Assembly: GCA_016927995.1 (NCBI GenBank)
Contig: JAFGLO010000004.1
Location: 64,955-128,954, forward strand
Direction: 5' to 3'
Origin: Candidatus Dojkabacteria bacterium
Lineage (GTDB): Bacteria > Patescibacteriota > Dojkabacteria > JAFGLO01
Length of the DNA: 64,000 nucleotides
Shown here: positions 934 to 54,860 of the stretch, one piece after another
Numbering within the stretch: the stretch's first letter is position 1
Layout: each line of letters opens with the position of its first letter
Translations under genes and position numbers: made by a program
The notes under the pieces: generated by a model
Seen by the model: the letters and a program-made list of their open reading frames with translations, nothing else
Database searches by the model: none
Told to the model about the DNA's origin: nothing

Positions 934-2712
934 ATGATTACCGATACACTAAAGTCAAAAATCCAGGAAGTCGTTAAGTCACTCTTCAAGGTAGATACTG
1001 AAATAGTTGTTGATATTCCCAATGATTCATCCAAAGGCGATTACTTTTCAAATGTGGCAATGCAGCTTGCCGGCAGACTTAAAAAAAATCCGGTAGAAAT
1101 CGCACAGGAAATCGTTAAGACACTTAACGTTTCAGATATCGCAGAGGCAACCGTAGCCAGTCCCGGATATATAAATTTTAAACTACTGACTTCTGTATAT
1201 CAAACAAAGTTTTGCGAAATGGTCGATGCCGCAAATAAAGGAAAACCGCTAGCTACAAACAGTCTTTGGAATGGCAAAAAAGTAATGATAGAGTTTGCAC
1301 ATCCTAATCCGTTTAAATCGTTTCATATTGGACACCTGCGAAATATCTGCCTTGGTGAATCACTTGTTCGCCTGTTCGAAGCATCAGGTGCAAAGGTAAT
1401 AAGAACAAATTACCAGGGTGATGTAGGCTTGCATATTGCAAAATGTTTATGGGCATTTTTAAAAACCGATCCTAAAGATTATCCGATGGCTCCACGTGAG
1501 AAAGCTACATTTTTAGGGAAATTGTATGCACAAGGTGCTACCGCATATAAAGATAACGAAAGCGCAAAATCAGAAATAAGAGAAATTAATAAGCAAATAT
1601 ATTCAGGTGAAAATCCCAAAATCACGAAACTTTGGCAACTTGGGAAAACTTGGAGTTTGGAGCATTTTCATGAAATATATAAGCGGGTATATTCCAGATT
1701 CGATAGAGAATACATGGAAACAGAAGTTATGAACGATGGACTTATGTATAGTAAACAAGCATTAGAAAAGGGAATTCTTAAAGAGAGTGACGGTGCAGTA
1801 ATTTTTGACGGAAAGCCACATGGGCTTGATACCAGGGTGTTTATAAACAATGAAGGATTACCAACCTACGAAGGTAAAGAACTCGGACTTGCATATAAAG
1901 AATTTACCGATTTTGGGGAATTAGATTTGTGTATTCACAACGTGGCCGTTGAACAGATAAGCTTTTTTAAGGTAACTTTTAAGGTCCAGGAGCTTTTAAA
2001 CCCTAAGCTTTTTAAAGGAAAACAGTATCACAATGCGTATGAATTTGTGGGGCTTAAAAAAGGAAAAATGAGTTCACGAGAGGGCAAAGTTGTTTTAGCA
2101 ATGGACATTTTGGATGAAGCTGTTTCTCGAATTAATGCTTTACCAACAGAAACTGCAAAAGACAATTCGGCTGAAGATTCGGATAATACCGAAATTTCGG
2201 AAACGGTGGGTGTCGGTGCCGTAAAATATTCATTCTTAAAGGTTAGCCCATTTAAATACATGGCGTTTGACATGGACGAGTGTGTAAGTCTTGAAGGAAA
2301 TTCGGGTCCATATTTGCAGTATAGTTATGTAAGGGCAAGGGCCGTAGGCAGTAGGGACATGTCTGTGACTTGTCCCGCAGATAGGGACATGTCTGTGACT
2401 TGTCCCACAGATGGGGAAATGTCACAGACTTGTCCTGCTTGTTCGACAAAAGAGGAACAGGAATTAATCAAGTCAATAACCAAATTTTCGGGCGTTGTGG
2501 AAGATGCCACAAAAGCCTATAGCCCTAATTATCTTGCCGATTACTTATACAAGCTTGCGCAAAGTTTTAGTAGATTTTATGAAAATGTTCCGGTACTTAA
2601 AGAGCCTGATACCCAAAAGAAAGCTGCGAGATTAACGCTTGTCTCAATGTTTGCTCGTGTAATGAAGGAAGGGCTTTATCTTTTAGGAATAGAGATAGTA
2701 GAAAAAATGTAA
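934..2712 (+). CDS. argS: Arginine--tRNA ligase with an in-frame repeat-derived insertion
   Basis: It has the class I HIGH motif (SFHIGHLRN), a KMSKS-like motif (KMSSREG), and the ArgRS N-terminal and anticodon-binding regions. An extended TGnTAcAAT -10 element lies at about 895-904. Confidence 0.95.
   Translation: MITDTLKSKIQEVVKSLFKVDTEIVVDIPNDSSKGDYFSNVAMQLAGRLKKNPVEIAQEIVKTLNVSDIAEATVASPGYINFKLLTSVYQTKFCEMVDAANKGKPLATNSLWNGKKVMIEFAHPNPFKSFHIGHLRNICLGESLVRLFEASGAKVIRTNYQGDVGLHIAKCLWAFLKTDPKDYPMAPREKATFLGKLYAQGATAYKDNESAKSEIREINKQIYSGENPKITKLWQLGKTWSLEHFHEIYKRVYSRFDREYMETEVMNDGLMYSKQALEKGILKESDGAVIFDGKPHGLDTRVFINNEGLPTYEGKELGLAYKEFTDFGELDLCIHNVAVEQISFFKVTFKVQELLNPKLFKGKQYHNAYEFVGLKKGKMSSREGKVVLAMDILDEAVSRINALPTETAKDNSAEDSDNTEISETVGVGAVKYSFLKVSPFKYMAFDMDECVSLEGNSGPYLQYSYVRARAVGSRDMSVTCPADRDMSVTCPTDGEMSQTCPACSTKEEQELIKSITKFSGVVEDATKAYSPNYLADYLYKLAQSFSRFYENVPVLKEPDTQKKAARLTLVSMFARVMKEGLYLLGIEIVEKM
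2353..2442 (+). repeat. 3 x 30-bp in-frame tandem repeat inside argS; each unit is a REP-like palindrome
   Basis: Units are 2353-2382, 2383-2412 and a degenerate copy at 2413-2442. The unit AGGGACATGTCTGTGACTTGTCCC[GA]CAGAT encodes RDMSVTCPAD / RDMSVTCPTD / GEMSQTCPAC. Each unit has GGGACA...TGTCCC inverted arms, and GTAGGGACA-GTCT matches the REP-like repeat at 42752 and 51723. Confidence 0.8.
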
Positions 2713-3240: not shown

Positions 3241-5094
3241 TTACTTTATGTTCCCAATCTGGCGCTTAGCTTTTGTTCGCTCGGTTCGTGTCAATAAAAC
3301 CTTTCTTAGTCTTAAGCTTTGAGGCGTTACTTCAAGCATTTCATCGTCGGCAATAAAAACAAGTGCATATTCAAGGGTAAGCGGGAGCGTTTGTTTTAAA
3401 GGAATCTGGGTAACTTCACCAACACGCATTCTTGAGGAGACCTCTCGTTCCTTGGCAATGTTAATATCAAGATCTGTATCGAATTTATTAATTCCTACTA
3501 TCATTCCTTCGTAAACAGGTTCGCCTGGTTTTATAAATAAGTCGCCACGATCTTGGGCTAGTCCTAGTGCATAATCAGTCGAGATACCTTTCTCGTATGC
3601 AATTAGTACACCACCTCGTTTAATTTCATCAATTTTCTCTAAAGGCTCATAGCCGGATACAAAACTATTTAAAACCGAAGTTCCTTTGGTTTGAGTCAAA
3701 AGCGTGTTTCTAAGTCCCAGCAGATTTCTTGTTTTTATTTGGTAAATAAAATGAACAATTCCTTTTGAGGTTTCCATGCTTTGTAAAATTGCTTTCCTGT
3801 GGCCAAGCTCGTTTGTTATGATACCAATCCATTCTTCCGGAACGTCGATATAAAGCTTTTCTACCGGCTCTTTAATAAGTCCGTCTTCTTCTTGCAGAAT
3901 TACTTCAGGTCTTCTCACCTGAAATTCGTAGCCTTCTCGTCGTAATGTTTCAATAAGGATTGACAACTGAAGTTCTCCTCGACCAGAAATATAATAACTG
4001 CTGCCTTGGGCTTTTTCAATTTTTAATGAAATATTGGTTTCCTTTTCGCGCTCAATACGTTGTTCAATTTGCTTTGCCGTAACGTAGTCTCCATCTTTTC
4101 CGGTAAATGGTGAAGTATTAGGTTCAATTTTAATTTTTACTGAAGGTGGAGAAATCTTTATCAATGATAATGGTTCAGGAGTTTGAAAATCACAAAGTGT
4201 GGCTCCTATTTCTGTTGATTCGATTCCTGTTATTGCAACAATATCACCTGTTTCTGCGATGTCTGTTGACTCGTAGTTAAGTCCTTTTCTTACAAAAATT
4301 TTTGTAACTTTTCCCGATGATAGGTTGGAATCTTCCGGTTTACATAATATAAGCGTTTGTCCAATTTTTGCTTTTCCTCTGTTTACTCGACCAATAAGAT
4401 ATCTACCTACATGACTGTCATAATCAAGTGCGGCAACCTGCATTTGGAAGCTGCCATTTATGTCCCCTTGGGGTTTGGGAATATATTCAATAATTTTGTC
4501 GAGTAGGGGTTGGATTGTACCTTGAGTTACATCTGGAACGGTTAAGTCACCTTCGGGTAGATTTTCAAAGACTTTACCTTCTCTGCCGATTGCATAGAAT
4601 ACAGGAAAGCTTAGTTGGGTATCACTCGTAGCAAGATTTAAAAATAGGTCCTCAACTTTTTTTCTGGTACTAATGACATCTGCGAACTTTTTGTCAATTT
4701 TATTTATTACAACAATTACAGGTAGATTTAGCTCAAATGCCTTGCGCAAAACAAATTCCGTCTGAGGCATTACACCTTCCTGAGCGTCAACAACAAGAAT
4801 ACATCCATCAGCCATATTTAATGTTCGTTCAACTTCACCGCCAAAATCCGAGTGACCGGGAGTATCGATAATATTTATTTTGTAGCCCTTATAATCGATT
4901 GCAATATTTTTTGCAAGAATAGTTATACCTTTTTCACGTTCAAGCTCATTAGAATCAAGAATCTGGGTTTGTTTCATCTCTTGCTGATTATCTCTAAACA
5001 ACTGGCTTTGTTTTATAAATGCATCAACCAGTGTGGTTTTTCCATGATCTACGTGTGCAATGATTGCTATGTTTCGAATATCTGCCTGTTGCAT
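3241..5094 (-). CDS. typA: Translational GTPase TypA/BipA
   Basis: N-terminal AHVDHGKTTL G1 motif, DTPGH, NKIDK, and the EF-G-like domain arrangement typical of BipA at about 617 aa. Confidence 0.93.
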   Translation of the reverse strand: MQQADIRNIAIIAHVDHGKTTLVDAFIKQSQLFRDNQQEMKQTQILDSNELEREKGITILAKNIAIDYKGYKINIIDTPGHSDFGGEVERTLNMADGCILVVDAQEGVMPQTEFVLRKAFELNLPVIVVINKIDKKFADVISTRKKVEDLFLNLATSDTQLSFPVFYAIGREGKVFENLPEGDLTVPDVTQGTIQPLLDKIIEYIPKPQGDINGSFQMQVAALDYDSHVGRYLIGRVNRGKAKIGQTLILCKPEDSNLSSGKVTKIFVRKGLNYESTDIAETGDIVAITGIESTEIGATLCDFQTPEPLSLIKISPPSVKIKIEPNTSPFTGKDGDYVTAKQIEQRIEREKETNISLKIEKAQGSSYYISGRGELQLSILIETLRREGYEFQVRRPEVILQEEDGLIKEPVEKLYIDVPEEWIGIITNELGHRKAILQSMETSKGIVHFIYQIKTRNLLGLRNTLLTQTKGTSVLNSFVSGYEPLEKIDEIKRGGVLIAYEKGISTDYALGLAQDRGDLFIKPGEPVYEGMIVGINKFDTDLDINIAKEREVSSRMRVGEVTQIPLKQTLPLTLEYALVFIADDEMLEVTPQSLRLRKVLLTRTERTKAKRQIGNIK

Positions 5095-18432: not shown

Positions 18433-18439
18433 ATAGATA

Positions 18440-18601
18440 AAACACTCAAATCGGGGCGATGCCCACTTCGGGGTATCCTCCCCGCTTTGGTATTTTGACT
18501 GCACTTTGTTTGTCAAAACACTCAAATCGGGGCGATGCCCGTAAAGGGTATCACCCCCGCTATCGCATTTTGTCTGCACTTTGTTTGTCAAAACACTCAA
18601 A
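18440..18601. repeat. About 76-bp tandem repeat, 2.2 copies, each carrying a decayed tRNA-Pro 3'-end copy (att-like)
   Basis: Units start at about 18440, 18516 and 18590. Each begins AAACACTCAAATCGGGGCGATGCCC. The third unit runs into the genuine tRNA 3' end (ATCGGGGCGACACG...). Confidence 0.7.
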
Positions 18602-18675
18602 TCGGGGCGACACGACTTGAACGTGCGACCTCATGACCCCCAGCCATGCGTTCTAGCCAACTGAACTACGCCCCG
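18602..18675 (-). tRNA. tRNA-Pro (anticodon GGG)
   Basis: Manual cloverleaf fold: acceptor CGGGGCG/CGCCCCG with A73; D stem GTTC/GAAC; anticodon stem CATGG/TCATG with loop CTGGGGG; T stem GCACG/CGTGT with loop TTCAAGT. No encoded CCA. Confidence 0.85.
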
Positions 18676-23976: not shown

Positions 23977-24981
23977 ATGGCTAAACGGATTGGAATTGAC
24001 CTTGGAACCGCAAACTCCGTTGTATATGTGTCCGATAAAGGAATAATTTTGTGTGAACCTACGGTTGTTGCTTTAACAAAAGACGACTTAATGGTTATTG
24101 CCGTTGGGCAGGAAGCCAAAGAGATGCTTGGGAAAACACCTGATTCCATAATCGCTCGAAGACCCTTAAGAAATGGAGTAATTGCTAATGCTCGAATAAC
24201 CGAAGCAATTCTTAAGTATTTTATTGGAAAAGTAATGGGACCAATAAGACTGTTTAAGCCCGAAGTTATGATTTCGGTACCTGTGGGAATAACTTCCGTT
24301 GAAAAACGCGCGGTTGTAAAGGCGGCAATTAGTGCCGGAGCCAAAAATGTTGAACTTATACCGGAACCGCTTGCAGCGGCCATAGGTGCCAAACTTCCAA
24401 TTCATACATCAACCGGAAACTTAATCGTAAATATAGGTGGTGGAACTTCTGAAATCGCTGTGATTTCTCTCAATGGAATTGTAGCATTTAACTCTGCACG
24501 TGTTGCAGGTGATGCACTAAATGATGGAATTGCAGTGTATGTTAGAAAGAAACATGGATTAGTGATAGGTGAGCAAATGTCGGAACGAATAAAAATTGAA
24601 ATAGGAAGTGCACTGCCTATGGAAAAACCCCTTGAAATGGAGATTAGAGGTCGTGATAACTCGACAGGTATGCCAAGATCAACAACAATTGATTCAAATC
24701 AAACGGTCGATGCCATGAAACCTCGACTTAATCAGATAATTTTGGCTGTAAAGTCGGTACTTGAACGTACTCCTCCTGAGCTTACATCCGATATTATTGA
24801 TCGCGGGCTTATTTTAAGTGGTGGTACTGCCATGCTTCGAAATATAGATATGCTTTTTACTAAAGCACTTGGTGTGCCTAGTCATATTGCCGATGATCCT
24901 ATTTATTGTGTGGCCCGTGGTATCGGTGAAGCCCTTAAACATATTGATATTTTAAGAAAAAGCATTGAAGCAAACATGTAG
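23977..24981 (+). CDS. mreB: Rod shape-determining actin homologue MreB
   Basis: IGIDLGTANS phosphate-1, the NIGGGTS adenosine motif and LSGGTAMLR phosphate-2 motif. It is 334 aa. Confidence 0.95.
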   Translation: MAKRIGIDLGTANSVVYVSDKGIILCEPTVVALTKDDLMVIAVGQEAKEMLGKTPDSIIARRPLRNGVIANARITEAILKYFIGKVMGPIRLFKPEVMISVPVGITSVEKRAVVKAAISAGAKNVELIPEPLAAAIGAKLPIHTSTGNLIVNIGGGTSEIAVISLNGIVAFNSARVAGDALNDGIAVYVRKKHGLVIGEQMSERIKIEIGSALPMEKPLEMEIRGRDNSTGMPRSTTIDSNQTVDAMKPRLNQIILAVKSVLERTPPELTSDIIDRGLILSGGTAMLRNIDMLFTKALGVPSHIADDPIYCVARGIGEALKHIDILRKSIEANM

Positions 24982-25014
24982 GGATATGTTTGTAATCTGT
25001 CCCTACAAATGTGT

Positions 25015-33454: not shown

Positions 33455-33700
33455 CTTATAATCCATTATACAGTGAAATAGTGAAGCAGTGAAACAGTAA
33501 AGTAATACTCTGGAAGCCCGATATGTGAGCAGAGATTCGCCTTAACAAGAAAGCAAAAGAGATAAAGGGTTCACTTCGAACATAGGAATCGACGGAAGCT
33601 TAAGCAGTGAAGTAGTGAAACAGTGAAGTATTCCTCTCCGGAAGATACCTATGAGAGAAGTGCCAGGCTTTGACAACAGATTAAATAAAAAATATACTAT
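33455..33700. repeat. Modular intergenic repeat element (8-bp periodic CAGTGAAG arrays plus a conserved core)
   Basis: It contains cagtgaaa-tagtgaag-cagtgaaa-cagtaaag, the core GGTTCACTTCGAACATAGGAATCGACGGAAGCTTAAGCAGTGAAG, and CTCCGGAAGATACCTATGAGAGAAGTG. Related modules occur at 45630-45730, 46440-46795, 53930-54090 and 54781-54860. Confidence 0.8.
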
Positions 33701-36872: not shown

Positions 36873-36942
36873 GATTTTGTGTTGTTTGTCGGGTATGAGA
36901 CTGTAGGGGCGGTTTTTAAACCCGTCCCTACGGTCTTTGTTT

Positions 36943-37953
36943 TTAATATCGTAATCCTATTATGTCTCTTGTCTTTTCAACGATTTCGTTGCTTATTGTG
37001 CGCACTTTTTTTGTACCTTCATGTAAGACATCCATTACGAAATCGGGTTTCTTTTCAAGTTCTGTGCGCTTTTGTCGGATTGGTGTTAAGAATTCGTCAA
37101 GTGCATTAAACAGTTTTTCTTTTACCTCTACATCACCCACGGTGCCTTTTGTGTATCTTTCCTTAAGTTCGGCTACCTCTGACTTATTTGGGTTAAATGC
37201 ATCATGATAAATAAATACCGGGTTTCCTTCAACTTTTCCGGGATCCGTGGCCTTTATTCTACTTGGATCAGTATACATTTTCATGACTTTCGCTTTTACG
37301 GTTTCGGAATCATCTGACAAATATATGCAATTTCCAATGCTTTTACTCATTTTACCCTGTCCGTCAGTACCAGGTAATCGTCCCAAATTAGTTACTTTGG
37401 CTTTTGGTTCATGAAAGAAGTCTGTTTTATACATCTTGTTAAATTTGCGGACAATGTCACGAGTTAATTCTACATGTGGAACTTGGTCTTCGCCAACGGG
37501 AACCAGATCGGCATTTACACACATTATGTCGGCTACCTGATGTACCGGGTACACATAGAATCCAAGTGGTGTACTATCTTTGAAAGCTTCTTTGGTTTGA
37601 CTTTTTTCGGCGAGTTCAGTTTTTATTGTTGGATTATGCGACAGCTGTTCTATAGATACGAAGTTTGCAAAATATATAAAAAGCTCTGCGATTGCAGGAA
37701 TTTGCGATTGTATAAATATTGTAGATTTGGTAGGGTCGATTCCCACTGCCATATAGTCGAGAGCTAGCTCAAACACATTTTCTTGGACTTTTTTAGGGTT
37801 GTCAAAGTTGTCTGTTAAAGCTTGAATGTCAGCTACAATTACAAACTGCTCATATTCATCTTGAAGCTCGACTCGCTGCAAGAGTGAACCTACATAATGG
37901 CCCAAATGGAGTTTTCCTGTTGGTCGGTCGCCAGTGAGTATTCGCTTTTTCAT
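36943..37953 (-). CDS. trpS: Tryptophan--tRNA ligase
   Basis: [16 protein letters not shown] (HIGH-type) and KMSKS motifs. It is 336 aa. Confidence 0.95.
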
Positions 37954-42751: not shown

Positions 42752-43338
42752 GTAGGGACAGGTCTAGACCGGCAGGGGGTCCAGAGAGTGCTTACCAATA
42801 TGTCCTTTGTGCTTTTGCACGTTAAAGTATATGTAATTACGAACACGTTGTAGATCTCTTTCATTCCGAATAATATGGTCGTAAAAAGATCTTTGCCATT
42901 CGAATCTGCCGGGAAACCTCTTGTTTATCCTCCATGATGAGTTCGATTTAAATCCTCTCATGATTTCAGACAAGTTTTTTTCTGGTTCAATCAGGTGAAT
43001 TATCCCATGCAAATGGTCTGGCATTACAATGAAGGCATCCAAATCTATTCCGGAATAATGAACAGGTAAGTCATGCCAACAACCCAATATGATTGCGCCT
43101 AAGTCACTTAAGACAAACATATTTCTCTTAATCTTGCCTAGGATCTGGGGCCTTGTCTTTACTACCGTTGTAATAAAGTAAAATCCTGGTGTTTTGTAGT
43201 CGTATCCTTTAAGCCGTTGTCTTTTCCTTCCTTTTTCTTCCATACTTAACATTAACACACCCGCACCCCCATATGGAAGAAACCAAGTTGGCATAATGTG
43301 AATTTAATACCCCTGTCGGTCTAGACCTGTCCCTACTG
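42752..43338. mobile_element. RAYT/IS200-like unit: a HuH Y1 transposase gene flanked by inverted 27-bp REP-like repeats
   Basis: Left repeat GTAGGGACAGGTCTAGACCGGCAGGGGG at 42752-42779. Right repeat, as reverse complement, GTAGGGACAGGTCTAGACCGACAGGGGT at 43311-43338. This is a 27/28 match. Each contains the palindrome GGTCTAGACC. Confidence 0.75.
42764..43294 (-). CDS. tnpA: IS200/IS605-family or REP-associated tyrosine transposase (HuH, Y1)
   Basis: HuH motif DHLHGIIHL, the N-terminal YDYKTPGFYFITT segment, and the C-terminal WQRSFYDHIIR...YIYFNVQKH segment with a candidate catalytic Tyr. It is 176 aa. Confidence 0.78.
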   Translation of the reverse strand: MPTWFLPYGGAGVLMLSMEEKGRKRQRLKGYDYKTPGFYFITTVVKTRPQILGKIKRNMFVLSDLGAIILGCWHDLPVHYSGIDLDAFIVMPDHLHGIIHLIEPEKNLSEIMRGFKSNSSWRINKRFPGRFEWQRSFYDHIIRNERDLQRVRNYIYFNVQKHKGHIGKHSLDPLPV

Positions 43339-45311: not shown

Positions 45312-45693
45312 AGTAATACGAACGATATAAAAAAAAGTAACAGTACTTTCCTCGCTATTATGGGTTGAATACTTCTGTGTGAACTCGCAGGGGGATTGAA
45401 TAATCGAGCCTTAAGATTGGTAGTTGGAGCTCTCGGAGAAGGGCTTTTGGTTTCTGCAAAGAGTCTAAACCGATTAGTGAAGTTTTACTTAATTGGTCAA
45501 CGTGAAGGAATAGATATGGAAGAAGCTCTTGATGAGCGTTTTGCAAGACTAAGAAGACTTTATCAAAGTTCCCTGCAGGCGGTTGATTAGCTCATTCTCT
45601 TGTAGATCGACAAAGGATTTCCAACACAAGCTACCGGCTAAATACTACTTCACCGTACAAGTCCGAGACATGTCTGTACTATTTCACTACTTA

Positions 45694-46371
45694 CTATCCT
45701 CTTCTTGGAACATAAGGAATAATCTTTTTTGCAAGTTCCATAATGGGCATGCTTTGTAGCCATACTTTGCCTGGACCCTTTACTGTTGCCAAAAACAAGC
45801 CTTCACCACCAAACAAAATGTTTTTAAATCCTTTAACCATTTGAATGTCTGCAGTTACACTGTCTTCATATGCGGCAATATATCCGGTATCGACTAGTAG
45901 TTCTTCTCCTTCTGTTAAGAGACGTTCTTCAACTGATCCTGCAACTTCGATAAAAGCTTTGCCTTTGCCTGATAATTTTTGAAGGATAAAGCCTTCACCG
46001 CCTAAAAGTCCCATTCCAAAACGTTTTGTTAAGTGAACGGATAGTTCTACTGTATTTTCTGCAACCATGAATGCATCTTTCTGTGTAATTATACTGTTAC
46101 CTGATAAATCAAATTCAATAATTTGTCCTGGAAATTCCGAGGTAAAGGCAATTTCTGCGTCATCTGCTTCAGACGTGAAGGTTGCCAAAAACATACTTTC
46201 TCCGCTAAATGCTCGACCGATTGCACTCATAACACCGCCTCGCATATTTGTTTCCATTTTAATTTGTGGACTCATCCAGGCCATTCCGCCCTTTTCGGAA
46301 AACACGGATTCTCCTTTTGAGAGTTTCATTACAATGTATGGGAGATTTCCACCTTTTATTTCGTACTTCAT
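45694..46371 (-). CDS. AIM24/DUF124 (TIGR00266) family protein
   Basis: MKYEIKGGNLPYIVMKL...GEGFILQKLSGKGKAFIE...GEGLFLATVKGPGKVWLQS fits the AIM24 repeat pattern. The C-terminal codons overlap one of the intergenic repeat modules. Confidence 0.72.
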   Translation of the reverse strand: MKYEIKGGNLPYIVMKLSKGESVFSEKGGMAWMSPQIKMETNMRGGVMSAIGRAFSGESMFLATFTSEADDAEIAFTSEFPGQIIEFDLSGNSIITQKDAFMVAENTVELSVHLTKRFGMGLLGGEGFILQKLSGKGKAFIEVAGSVEERLLTEGEELLVDTGYIAAYEDSVTADIQMVKGFKNILFGGEGLFLATVKGPGKVWLQSMPIMELAKKIIPYVPRRG

Positions 46372-46439: not shown

Positions 46440-46795
46440 GCTATAGTCTCTTGCTTGCTAGTCTATTCACTATTTCACTGCTTAAGTTTCCCTCGATTCC
46501 TATGTTCATCGGAAGCCATTTGCTTATTTTGCCTTTTTGCTAAAGCGATTTCTTCTTCTCACACTAGCTTTTCGGTGATTACTTGACTGTTTTACTACTT
46601 CACTACTTCACTGTTTCACTACGTTACTGCTTCACTGCTTAAGCTTCCGTTGATTCCTATGTTCGAAGTGAACCCTTTATCTGTTTTGCCTTTGTGTTAA
46701 AGCTTGCCACTTCTCTCATAGGTATCTTCCGGAGTGTATTACTTCACTGTTTCACTACTTTACTGTTTAAGGTATACTAAAGTAAGACTTAGTTT
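46440..46795. repeat. Largest cluster of the modular intergenic repeat family (two back-to-back modules)
   Basis: On the opposite strand it reads GGTTCACTTCGAACATAGGAATCAACGGAAGCTTAAGCAGTGAAG and CTCCGGAAGATACCTATGAGAGAAGTGGCAAGC. These are flanked by 8-bp periodic arrays (cttcacta-cttcactg-tttcacta-cgttactg-cttcactg). Confidence 0.8.
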
Positions 46796-51722: not shown

Positions 51723-51946
51723 GTAGGGACAGGTCTAGACCCGCACCTCCAGTTCGGGAAATTGCCAGTGGATAACCATTCTAAGAGACCGATCTTTGCA
51801 TACACCTACACGCATTGGAAAATATATTGACCAGCTCGTTATTTGTTAGCAGGGGTGTGGGTGTAAGACCGTCACGGGGTTATTAGAGTCATGATCTTTT
51901 CGTTATTTGAATGTTGCGGCATGTCGGTCTAGACCTGTCCCTACTA
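51723..51946. repeat. REPIN-like element: two inverted copies of the REP-like repeat with no transposase
   Basis: GTAGGGACAGGTCTAGACCCGCACC lies at 51723-51747. Its inverted partner GTCGGTCTAGACCTGTCCCTAC lies at 51923-51946. They enclose about 175 bp of non-coding DNA. Confidence 0.7.
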
Positions 51947-51950
51947 CGAT

Positions 51951-52017
51951 ATTTATCGATACTTACCGATATTTACCGGTATTTACCGGTATTTATCGAT
52001 ACTTACCGATACTTACA
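51951..52017. repeat. Tandem array of about 6.7 x 10-bp palindromic repeats upstream of the ECF sigma gene
   Basis: ATTTATCGAT ACTTACCGAT ATTTACCGGT ATTTACCGGT ATTTATCGAT ACTTACCGAT ACTTACAGTG. Each unit holds an ACCGGT or ATCGAT palindrome. The array ends 3 nt before the TATAAT (52021-52026) of the GTG-start sigma gene. Confidence 0.75.
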
Positions 52018-52061: not shown

Positions 52062-52625
52062 GTGAACGAATCAAAGTTGGTACAAACAGCACAAAACGGA
52101 GATAGCACCGCAATGCAGGCCTTATACGAAGAAAGCGTTAGTTGTATATACCGCTTTGTATACTCGTTCTCATTAGGAAAAGAAGTTACCGATGATATTG
52201 TCGCAGAAAGCTTTACAAAAGCGTTTGAAAAACTTAAACAATTTAGGGGAAAAAGCTCTTTTAAAACATGGGTGTATAAAATTGCAAGAAATGAAGTATA
52301 CACATATTTCAACAAAAAAAGAGGGACCATTCCGATGGATGAAGAAAAAATAGAGCAAGTGGCTGATCGCATTGGTAATGATATTTTGCAGAGTCATGAA
52401 AATGATCGACATACCAATAATGACAATAAGAACGAGCGACTTGTAAGGAAAATACTAAATCAGTTGCCTGCCAGGCAGGCAGAAGTTCTAAGATTGCGGT
52501 TTATTTTGGGGTATACCGTAAAAGAGTGTGCACTGGAGTTAAAAATTTCCGAAGGCAATGTAAAGGTGATTCAGAATAGGGCATTGGGAAAAGCTAATAA
52601 GTTGGTGAATAAAGAAAATGGATAA
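52062..52625 (+). CDS. ECF-type RNA polymerase sigma factor (sigma-70 regions 2 and 4)
   Basis: The region 2 motifs YRFVYSF...D (2.1) and WVYKIARN (2.4), and the region 4 helix-turn-helix segment VLRLRFILGYTVKECALELKISEGNVK. Confidence 0.85.
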   Translation: MNESKLVQTAQNGDSTAMQALYEESVSCIYRFVYSFSLGKEVTDDIVAESFTKAFEKLKQFRGKSSFKTWVYKIARNEVYTYFNKKRGTIPMDEEKIEQVADRIGNDILQSHENDRHTNNDNKNERLVRKILNQLPARQAEVLRLRFILGYTVKECALELKISEGNVKVIQNRALGKANKLVNKENG

Positions 52626-53929: not shown

Positions 53930-54090
53930 AGATTGTCAAATGGTAGTAAGTAGTAGGGATATGTCAATGACTTGTCCAGTAGTAAAGTAATACTCCGGAA
54001 CATAGGAATCAACGGAAGCTTGCGCAGTAAAGCAGTGAAGTAATCCTCTCCGGAACATAGGAATCGATGGAGTATTAAATCGTAAAAAAG
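53930..54090. repeat. Modular intergenic repeat (two core copies)
   Basis: CTCCGGAACATAGGAATCAACGGAAGCTTGCGCAGTAAAGCAGTGAAGTAATCCTCTCCGGAACATAGGAATCGATGGAG. Confidence 0.75.
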
Positions 54091-54101
54091 TGAGCAAGTG
54101 C

Positions 54102-54773
54102 TTACTCCGACAAAACAACAACGGTAAATTCACCCTTTAAAGGAATTTCATTTCCCAAAAGCTGTGCTATCTCTGTAGCCTTTTTTGTGACAATCTGCTC
54201 ATGGATTTTGGTAAGCTCACGAGCAATACAGACGGAAGCTATCGGATATTTTTGTGCAATATAATCAAGGACGGATTTTATCCTTCTTGGCGATTCAAAA
54301 AATAAGAATGTTTCCTTGCGTGCAATATATTTATCGAGTACTTTGTGAAACTTTACGGTTTTAGGTAGAAATCCTATGAAGGTAAAAGGATAAGGAGGAA
54401 GTCCGCTTGCAGTAAGTGCTGTGGTGATTGCCGATGCACCAGGAATGGATACAACGTTATGTTCTGTAGTCTCTTTTATTTTGCGGACCACGGTAAAGCC
54501 AGGGTCGGATATAATAGGTGTCCCGCTTTCCGATACGATTGCCAGATTTTTACCATCGTTAAGTAGTTTTATAATACCTTCGGCTGATTCTGTTTCATTA
54601 TGGTTTTCGTGAACCATTAATCTTTTTTTAATGCCGTATTTTCCTAAAAGTTTAAGAGTTGTGCGTGTGTCCTCGCATAAAATAACATCGACTGCCTTTA
54701 GGGTATCCAGCGCCCGCAGTGTAATGTCTTTTAGATTGCCAATTGGTGTTGCGACAAGGTAAAGTGTTGCCAT
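54102..54773 (-). CDS. rsmI: 16S rRNA (cytidine1402-2'-O)-methyltransferase RsmI
   Basis: LYLVATPIGNLKDITLRAL...ILCEDTR, tetrapyrrole-methylase fold. It is 223 aa. Confidence 0.9.
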   Translation of the reverse strand: MATLYLVATPIGNLKDITLRALDTLKAVDVILCEDTRTTLKLLGKYGIKKRLMVHENHNETESAEGIIKLLNDGKNLAIVSESGTPIISDPGFTVVRKIKETTEHNVVSIPGASAITTALTASGLPPYPFTFIGFLPKTVKFHKVLDKYIARKETFLFFESPRRIKSVLDYIAQKYPIASVCIARELTKIHEQIVTKKATEIAQLLGNEIPLKGEFTVVVLSE

Positions 54774-54780
54774 ATAATCA

Positions 54781-54860
54781 GTATACAGTAATCAGTGGAA
54801 TAGTGAAATAGTGAAGCAGGAGAGATAGGTCTATGATTTGTTTATAAGTAGTAAGCAGTA
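54781..54860. repeat. Modular intergenic repeat (8-bp CAGTGGAA/TAGTGAAA array)
   Basis: cagtggaa-tagtgaaa-tagtgaag-caggagag in the divergent promoter region. Confidence 0.6.

Follow-up and report, generated by a model that had tools for sequence, protein, structure and literature searches.

A tandem array in the argS gene of a Dojkabacteria bacterium that probably derives from a GTAG-type REP

The DNA considered here is a 64-kb stretch from a Candidatus Dojkabacteria bacterium (contig JAFGLO010000004.1, positions 64,955 to 128,954), which we term 'the window' and number from its own first letter. Its argS gene, for arginine–tRNA ligase, contains an array of three tandem 30-bp units. We interpret this array, with a probability of roughly 0.8, as a repetitive extragenic palindrome (REP) of the GTAG type that became part of the argS reading frame and was tandemly duplicated there. 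The closest described systems are the GTAG REPs of other bacteria. A survey of these (Di Nocera, De Gregorio and Rocco 2013, BMC Genomics 14:522; PMC3733652) found GTAG repeats in Proteobacteria, Cyanobacteria, Chloroflexi and the PVC group, and distinguished 24 GTAG families. Most of these REPs lie between genes, at gene 3' ends, and the associated transposase, a REP-associated tyrosine transposase (RAYT), is itself flanked by REPs in an arrangement termed a 'REPtron'. Some are intragenic, tRNA synthetase genes included. Grouped REPs, in tandem with flanking DNA, encode 20–30 amino acids, and the authors of the survey suggest that such inserts may be neutral, located as they are in flexible linkers or loops. 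The window shares with the GTAG REPs the tag, the stem–loop, the REPtron, the presence of copies within open reading frames (ORFs), and the supply of a TAG stop codon by the tag (24979–24981). It differs in its host, the Dojkabacteria being members of the Patescibacteria or Candidate Phyla Radiation (CPR), and in that three direct copies form nearly the whole of a protein loop.

Two further systems bear on the transposase and on the arrangement of the repeats. The REPs and bacterial interspersed mosaic elements (BIMEs) of Escherichia coli, with their transposase TnpA-REP (PDB 4ER8; Messing et al. 2012, PMC3479197), resemble the window in the 5' GTAG, the imperfect hairpin and the inverted REPs that flank the transposase gene. 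TnpA-REP is a monomeric HUH/Y1 enzyme that needs each base of the GTAG for binding and cleavage (PMC3479197), and the RAYT of the window aligns with it at the HUH motif and the catalytic tyrosine. The E. coli REPs differ in that their hairpin sequence is another one, that they are extragenic, and that they usually alternate in orientation; the similarity between the two transposases is distant. REPINs are non-autonomous pairs of inverted REPs thought to be mobilized by a single-copy RAYT (Bertels and Rainey 2011, PMC3116915). A 224-nt element of the window is alike in form. The argS array is not a REPIN, because its copies are direct repeats, with a period of 30 nt.

In-frame palindromes inside protein genes are also known from Rickettsia, as the Rickettsia palindromic elements (RPEs; Ogata et al. 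2000, as cited in PMC3733652). According to that survey, RPE-4 and RPE-6 are short and CGTC-tagged, and CGTC repeats are without a dedicated transposase. RPEs and the argS array are alike in that a selfish palindrome resides in frame in genes that probably work, and is thought to be tolerated in loops. An earlier note on this DNA, made by inspection, had likened the two. The likeness extends to behaviour, that is, to in-frame residence in genes, and not to sequence, tag or transposase: the argS unit is 30 bp long and GTAG-tagged, has no sequence relationship to RPEs, and is not to be counted among them. RPE-1 is much longer, roughly 100–150 bp.

The phenomenon itself is therefore already known. 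The novelty lies in the host lineage, in the direct triplication, which makes up almost an entire loop of an aminoacyl-tRNA synthetase, and in the inversion of a hairpin loop in one of the copies. In the literature searched we found no in-depth link of RAYTs or REPs with Patescibacteria, and matches to the hairpin sequence itself were confined to unrelated eukaryotic primers. The Dojkabacteria (CPR) genome considered here has a REP/RAYT system, which appears to have left its hairpin in an essential gene of translation; a phenomenon recorded in Rickettsia, Proteobacteria and the PVC group is thereby extended to a lineage whose genomes are very small. REP-encoded segments may pass for lineage-specific protein insertions or Cys-rich motifs, and recognizing peptides such as SVTCP, VGTGLDLSL and VGNGLKPFP as REP-encoded prevents their over-interpretation. 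The graded decay of the argS units, together with the loop inversion in the third, also amounts to a small natural record of how hairpin repeats evolve under coding constraint.

The argS array and its repeat family

The host gene, argS (934..2712, + strand), is an apparently intact ORF of 592 amino acids. Its product is the same sequence as MBN1373912.1 (Candidatus Dojkabacteria metagenome-assembled genome (MAG), 131-kb contig) and scores 377 bits against TIGR00456, for which the cutoff is 262. It comprises the Pfam domains Arg_tRNA_synt_N, tRNA-synt_1d and DALR_1, and in an alignment with 32 homologs its HIGH (H131–H134) and KMSSR (K378–R382) motifs fall in invariant columns. It has, in other words, what is expected of a class I arginine–tRNA ligase: the N-terminal domain, the catalytic domain with HIGH/KMSKS-type motifs, and the DALR domain. 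The AlphaFold2 model of the protein has a mean pLDDT of 87.6 and a pTM of 0.88. The closest other ArgS in the databases searched is 54–56% identical, and the ArgS and the RAYT of the window each form a singleton 90% cluster. A 617-aa GTPase-like ORF (3241–5094) neighbours argS.

Tandem Repeats Finder places the array at 2348–2435, with a period of 30 bp, 3.0 copies, 88% matches and a score of 127. In the register of the REP, the three units occupy 2351–2440; phased to the codons, they span 2353–2382, 2383–2412 and 2413–2442, and translate to RDMSVTCPAD, RDMSVTCPTD and GEMSQTCPAC. The program, the ORF and the translation thus agree with the earlier note that three tandem units lie in frame within argS. 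Phased in this way, units 1 and 2 are identical at 29/30 positions, and unit 3 matches units 1 and 2 at 20–21/30. Unit 1 (2351..2380, +) consists of the GTAG tag, the hairpin GGGACAtGTC-TGT-GACtTGTCCC (2354–2376) and a spacer, and encodes (S)RDMSVTCPA. Unit 2 (2381..2410, +) has the same hairpin (2384–2406) behind the tag ATAG, and encodes DRDMSVTCPT. Unit 3 (2411..2440, +) is decayed: its tag is ATGG, its stem GGGAAA/TGTCCT and its loop ACA, and it encodes DGEMSQTCPA(C). Only unit 1, therefore, keeps the GTAG (2351–2354).

The hairpin common to units 1 and 2 has a 9-bp stem, interrupted by one T.T mismatch, and a 3-nt loop. Folded as DNA, both units reach –7.5 kcal/mol, and 0/200 and 3/200 shuffled sequences, respectively, fold as well. 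Unit 3 reaches –1.8 kcal/mol, a value equalled by 87/200 shuffles and so no better than theirs. The earlier note describes every unit as an imperfect palindrome; a stem–loop of this kind is found in units 1 and 2 and not in unit 3. The loop of unit 3 (ACA, 2424–2426) is the exact reverse complement of the TGT at 2364–2366 and 2394–2396, and the flanking stem has kept its orientation. The inverted loop allows units 1 and 3 to pair when the RNA of the whole array is folded in silico. The inversion looks like the signature of a template switch within the hairpin, and suggests that the hairpin may extrude in vivo. Counted by hand, unit 3 fits units 1 and 2 at 21/29 positions when read directly and at 20/29 when read in inverse. 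We prefer to regard it as a direct copy, rather than an inverted, REPIN-like one, because the direct reading retains the 30-nt register and the 3' 'GC'.

Several comparisons connect the units with other repeats, those within the window being counted and placed over its full 64 kb. Exact matches to the 14-mer GTAGGGACAKGTCT lie at 2351, 42752, 43336(–), 51723 and 51944(–), and a tolerance of up to two mismatches raises the number of matches to 10, against 0.4 expected. A core, ANATGTCNNNGACTTGT (ANATGTC-NNN-GACTTGT, with the T.T mismatch and the 3-nt loop), occurs five times in the window, in all three argS units and at two intergenic sites, 45657(–) and 53959, and in none of 100 shuffles. Outside the window, we scanned GTDB genomes (596 Gb) with the pattern GTAGGGACANGTCTN{1,2}GAC, which has 16 specified bases, and obtained at least 120 loci from many phyla, where by our own estimate a few hundred matches would arise by chance. 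Many of the matches (29 distinct sequences) extend past the pattern into a full palindrome with a 14-bp stem, GTAGGGACARGTCT(N)AGACYTGTCCCTAC, which shows compensatory G-C/A-T variants. Such extension is not expected by chance.

The covariance model R1 rests on 29 hairpins, all from other genomes and none from the window; it was searched against the window with filters off. It detects unit 1 at 21.0 bits (E 0.0015) and unit 2 at 20.5 and 18.9 bits (E 0.002–0.006), E-values that are rough since the calibration was shortened. Unit 3 was not detected in this search. R1 places units 1 and 2 on a par with the intergenic REPs at 36903 (E 0.0024) and 24978 (E 0.0027), and with the arm at 51723 of the 224-nt element. 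A metagenome scan for the variant with the TGT loop yielded six apparently intergenic copies, and GTAGGGACAGGTCTGTGACTTGTCCCGC, found in two metagenome loci (L124 and L126; 35% GC), is an intergenic REP identical to argS unit 1 at 27/28 positions. Within argS itself, no other 90 nt are as rich in GC as the array, at 0.51–0.56 against a gene mean of 0.389 (sd 0.045). From the R1 matches, the shared core, the 27/28 metagenome match and the outlying GC content we conclude, on the strength of sequence comparison, that the argS units are genuine members of the GTAG-type REP family, the family of the arms that flank the transposase gene, as the earlier note had proposed. They display the GTAG tag in one of three units, the stem–loop in units 1 and 2, and a match to the family in sequence and structure.

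The presumed mobilizer of the family is the RAYT of the window, a Y1/HUH protein of 176 aa (42764..43294, – strand) with the Pfam domain Y1_Tnp. Its gene occurs in single copy within the window, ~40 kb from the argS array. The protein scores 80.7 bits against NCBIfam NF047646 (REP_Tyr_transpos), barely above the cutoff of 80, and matches TnpA-REP (4ER8) at E 1.5e-6; this match covers 80 residues and aligns the HLH motif and the tyrosine of YIYFN. Both results sustain the earlier assignment of a HuH transposase to the element at 42752–43338. Two REP-type arms enclose the gene. The first (42752..42778, +) is an exact GTAGGGACAGGTCT and overlaps the last codons of the RAYT; the second (43310..43336, –) is its counterpart in a 27-nt inverted repeat. 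The arms are 96% complementary, each starts with GTAG, and with the gene they make up an element of 587 nt. A cognate RAYT with inverted REPs, that is, a REPtron, is thus found in the window. The TAG in GGTCTAGACC (42764–42766) is the stop codon of the RAYT; the arm also encodes the C-terminal residues of the protein, LDPLPV, in which the homolog P0172 likewise ends.

The 224-nt element (51723..51946) is non-autonomous and resembles a REPIN or a MITE (miniature inverted-repeat transposable element). It has inverted arms and no ORF, and its left arm is detected by R1 at 23.7 bits (E 0.00026). Compared by blastn, it has only the 23–24-nt termini in common with the RAYT element, the interiors being unrelated. 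Its spacer measures ~170 nt, which is long for a REPIN.

Origin of the array

In a loop alignment of ArgS with 32 homologs, the repeat fills unconserved sequence that separates the 'Y.RAR..I' helix from the 'EE.LLK' helix. Since Pfam DALR_1 spans residues 461–592, the site is the first inter-helix loop of the DALR anticodon-binding domain, and not the junction between the catalytic core and that domain, where the earlier note had put it. The same note had the array directly before the EEQELIK helix, and there the alignment and the AlphaFold2 model agree with it. The structure model also yields the loop that had been anticipated, within the DALR domain rather than ahead of it: residues 476–498 form a coil between helices 458–474 and 506–516, with pLDDT <50, a value that signifies uncertainty and not proven disorder.

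The loop from R467 to E508 is 40 aa long in ArgS; in the 32 homologs its length varies from 22 to 39, with a median of 27. Measured from the GPYxQY motif to the C-terminus, ArgS has 125 residues, the maximum among 113 homologs, whose median is 110. The solved ArgRS structures 6AO8, 2ZUE and 4OBY have gaps of 18, 8 and 15 residues, respectively, facing the repeat. An alignment with orthologs had been proposed as a check on the segment, and the repeat peptide is in fact absent from all 120 of the best ArgS homologs inspected, the closest of which are 54–56% identical. Judged by the length of the loop against the median, the net gain is ~13–15 residues, and not the 30 or so that had been claimed. 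The repeat itself contributes 30 residues, nearly the whole loop, and leaves only ~10 others, so that a simple addition of 30 residues is impossible; the native loop must have been lost or overwritten.

The history that we favour would have begun when a single REP hairpin of the RAYT-served family landed in the hypervariable DALR loop between the first two helices, perhaps by RAYT-catalysed single-strand cleavage and joining, if the analogy with E. coli TnpA-REP holds (PMC3479197). A block of 30 nt (the 23-nt hairpin and 7 nt of spacer) would then have been tandemly duplicated twice, through hairpin-assisted slippage or, possibly, unequal exchange. The graded identities between the units (29/30 versus 20–21/30) point to one unit duplicated twice at different times. 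Unit 3, decayed and with its loop flipped, would be the oldest copy, and units 1 and 2 the youngest pair. Three copies are accounted for most simply in this way, by tandem duplication of one 30-nt unit and not by three insertions. Selection on an essential gene would permit only a period divisible by three, read in a frame free of stops. The two alternative + strand frames of the unit carry TAG and TGA, and the observed frame is therefore the only one that an essential gene could survive. By analogy with the E. coli enzyme and its need for GTAG, unit 1 alone in the array could remain a substrate. The product would be a Cys/Pro-rich coil of 30 residues, making up nearly the entire loop, and most likely a tolerated passenger.

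Certain points weigh against this history. The databases searched hold no close relative (the next ArgS is 54–56% identical), and for this reason we have reconstructed, rather than seen, the empty site and the sequence of events. Without its 30 repeat residues the loop would be ~10 aa long, below the homolog minimum of 22, which does not fit a pure insertion. The copies are direct and in tandem, and are not in the inverted arrangement usual for pairs of REPs. Units 2 and 3, moreover, are unlikely to be independent products of the transposase, because they are without the GTAG that E. coli TnpA-REP requires (PMC3479197) and that the RAYT of the window, by analogy, may require as well.

The length of the loop also lends something to a different explanation, in which nothing was inserted: the native loop was expanded by slippage, and became REP-like through gene conversion or template switching from REPs at other sites of the genome, or by chance. 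The repeat nearly fills the loop, which without it would be shorter than that of any homolog; the exact inversion of the loop in unit 3 shows that events of the template-switch type occur at the hairpin; and the similarity to 53939–53982 runs ~14 nt upstream of the GTAG, into native argS codons. Even so, we regard this explanation as improbable. A model made from the hairpins of other genomes detects the units at E ~0.002, unit 1 is all but one nucleotide the same as an intergenic REP of an unrelated contig (27/28), the GC content of the array is an outlier within argS, nothing similar occurs in 120 homologs, and the REP family sits in many unrelated genes.

Insertion and duplication of a REP leave room for the possibility that the result was put to use, as a selected functional module: either a metal or redox site with four cysteines, or an mRNA structure that adjusts the translation or stability of argS. 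There are four Cys in 30 residues, with CPAC at the end, and the predicted RNA fold of the 111 nt covering the array reaches –51.9 kcal/mol (z = –4.8). Any REP array, however, would give a strong RNA fold, and the Cys-Pro pairs are no more than the translation of the conserved TGTCCC arm, which a TatD gene from a different genome reads in the same frame, with the same type of peptide as the outcome. AlphaFold2 gives a low-confidence coil, no homolog has cysteines in the loop (alignment, 120 homologs), and unit 3 decays in stem and peptide alike. We consider such use very unlikely, and reject the binding of metal by the four cysteines as unsupported by the coil, the TatD peptide and the homologs. 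The earlier note had left it open whether the Cys-rich insert is tolerated or exploited; tolerated is much the better description.

That the repeat was wrongly expanded or inserted in the contig, as an artefact of assembly or binning, is scarcely credible: the source is admittedly a MAG and a single contig, but the array is just 90 bp, its units differ (29/30, 21/30 and 20/30), neither the frame nor either of the flanking ArgRS helices is disrupted, and retention of frame together with graded divergence between copies is not expected of an artefact.

REPs in other genes and genomes

Insertions in other genomes were drawn from the loci of the GTDB scan (at least 120, L001–L120) and matched to genes with Pfam support. 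REPs lie in frame in CarB of a Patescibacteria genome (L065:3-2480, –), where the palindrome is read as 'VGTGLDLSVQ'; in AroE of Roizmanbacteria, which has two insertions (L100:6436-7317, +); in PckA of Patescibacteria (L030:7050-8000, +); in UvrC of Roizmanbacteria (L071:2673-3968, –); and in an Eco57I-type methyltransferase of Leptospiraceae (L002:6290-7999, –). The TatD gene mentioned above (L067:134-1036, +) has two in-frame REPs in the argS frame, read as CRDRSVTCPK-SDRFKTCPYT. These in-gene REPs are complete or nearly so, the frame of the palindrome differs from gene to gene, and most of the genomes are Patescibacteria MAGs. The inference in the earlier note that REP mobilization reaches coding sequence is supported, if in other genomes, by these six kinds of gene and by RAYT genes as well.

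RAYT genes at three of the loci (L013:1039-1497, L031:1850-2344 and L079:3483-3906, all –) themselves carry the palindrome in frame, with GTAGGGACAGGTCTAGACCTGTCCCTAC read as VGTGLDLSL, in the loop directly after the HUH motif. At least 10/29 database homologs of the window RAYT have palindrome-type 'VG...' peptides in this same post-HUH loop (alignment A3), among them VGNGLKPFP, VGTGRDLSLQ and VGAIHELHLR. Aligned with the 29 homologs, the RAYT of the window has no palindrome-type insert in that loop. The 28–29-nt palindrome GTAGGGACARGTCT(N)AGACYTGTCCCTAC is almost invariant among the matches listed, a conservation that is biased since the search pattern selects the sequence. The MAGs that carry it include Chloroflexi, Patescibacteria, Leptospiraceae, Acidobacteriota, Bacteroidota and Gammaproteobacteria, and the RAYT proteins beside it are only 30–42% identical to the RAYT of the window.

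From these cases one might tentatively suppose that the GTAGGGACARGTCT..AGACYTGTCCCTAC family routinely writes itself into coding sequence, both in CPR housekeeping genes and, as a fixed feature, in the post-HUH loop of RAYTs, although we think this doubtful. If it were true, the RAYT-internal copy could be a protected master copy, or a self-recognition site that couples the evolution of transposase and hairpin. REPs would then supply CPR proteins regularly with new loops, and the partnership of REP and RAYT would have a feature that we have not seen described.

Two candidates were set aside. A HemA gene (L089) reads 'VGTGLDSQIL', which we take to be a native HemA motif; the DNA holds only half of the palindrome, and was regarded as a chance match to the pattern. 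A full REP in an open frame of 691 aa (L028) was not counted, the frame being without Pfam support and the contig having 60% GC.

Other repeats of the window

In addition to the argS array, the window holds four stand-alone intergenic REPs and the four arms described above. All of these are GTAG-tagged except the copy at 45655–45679, which has GTAC, and three of the four stand-alone copies lie 0–15 nt from a stop codon. The first, GTAGGGATATGTTTGTAATCTGTCCCTAC (24978..25006), is situated between convergent genes, and the TAG of its GTAG (24979–24981) is the stop codon of the ORF 23977–24981. The second, GTAGGGGCGGTTTTTAAACCCGTCCCTAC (36903..36931), lies 12 nt past the stop of the gene 36943–37953(–). 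The third, GTACAGACATGTCTCGGACTTGTAC (45655..45679, –), is degenerate, has the same core with the T.T mismatch as the argS units, and lies 15 nt past the stop of the gene 45694–46371(–). The fourth, GTAGGGATATGTCAATGACTTGTCCAGTAG (53953..53982, +), lies ~120 nt past the stop of the gene 54102–54773. It is the copy in the window closest to the argS units: the region 53939–53982 is 77% identical to argS 2337–2380 over 44 nt.

Repeats of other kinds are found nearby. At 51947–52016, a 10-bp unit (CGATATTTAC / CGGTATTTAC) is repeated seven times in tandem. The copies directly abut the right REP arm of the 224-nt element and end ~45 nt upstream of the ORF 52062–52625, whose product, by its look, we take to resemble a sigma factor of the sigma-70 or extracytoplasmic function (ECF) type. 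A second intergenic repeat family, of ~80–120 nt, is present at 33459–33675, 46466–46771, 53998–54094 and 54781–54819. It consists of runs of an 8-bp unit (AGTGAARY) with a conserved core, GAACATAGGAATCGACGGAAGCTT, and occurs in both orientations at no fewer than four sites; one copy directly adjoins the REP at 53953–53982. Rfam identifies two tRNAs in the window, and nothing else. Finally, a 75-bp tandem repeat at 18439–18610 comprises 2.3 copies with 88% matches, and includes GGGGCGATGCCC / GGGTATCACCCCC segments.

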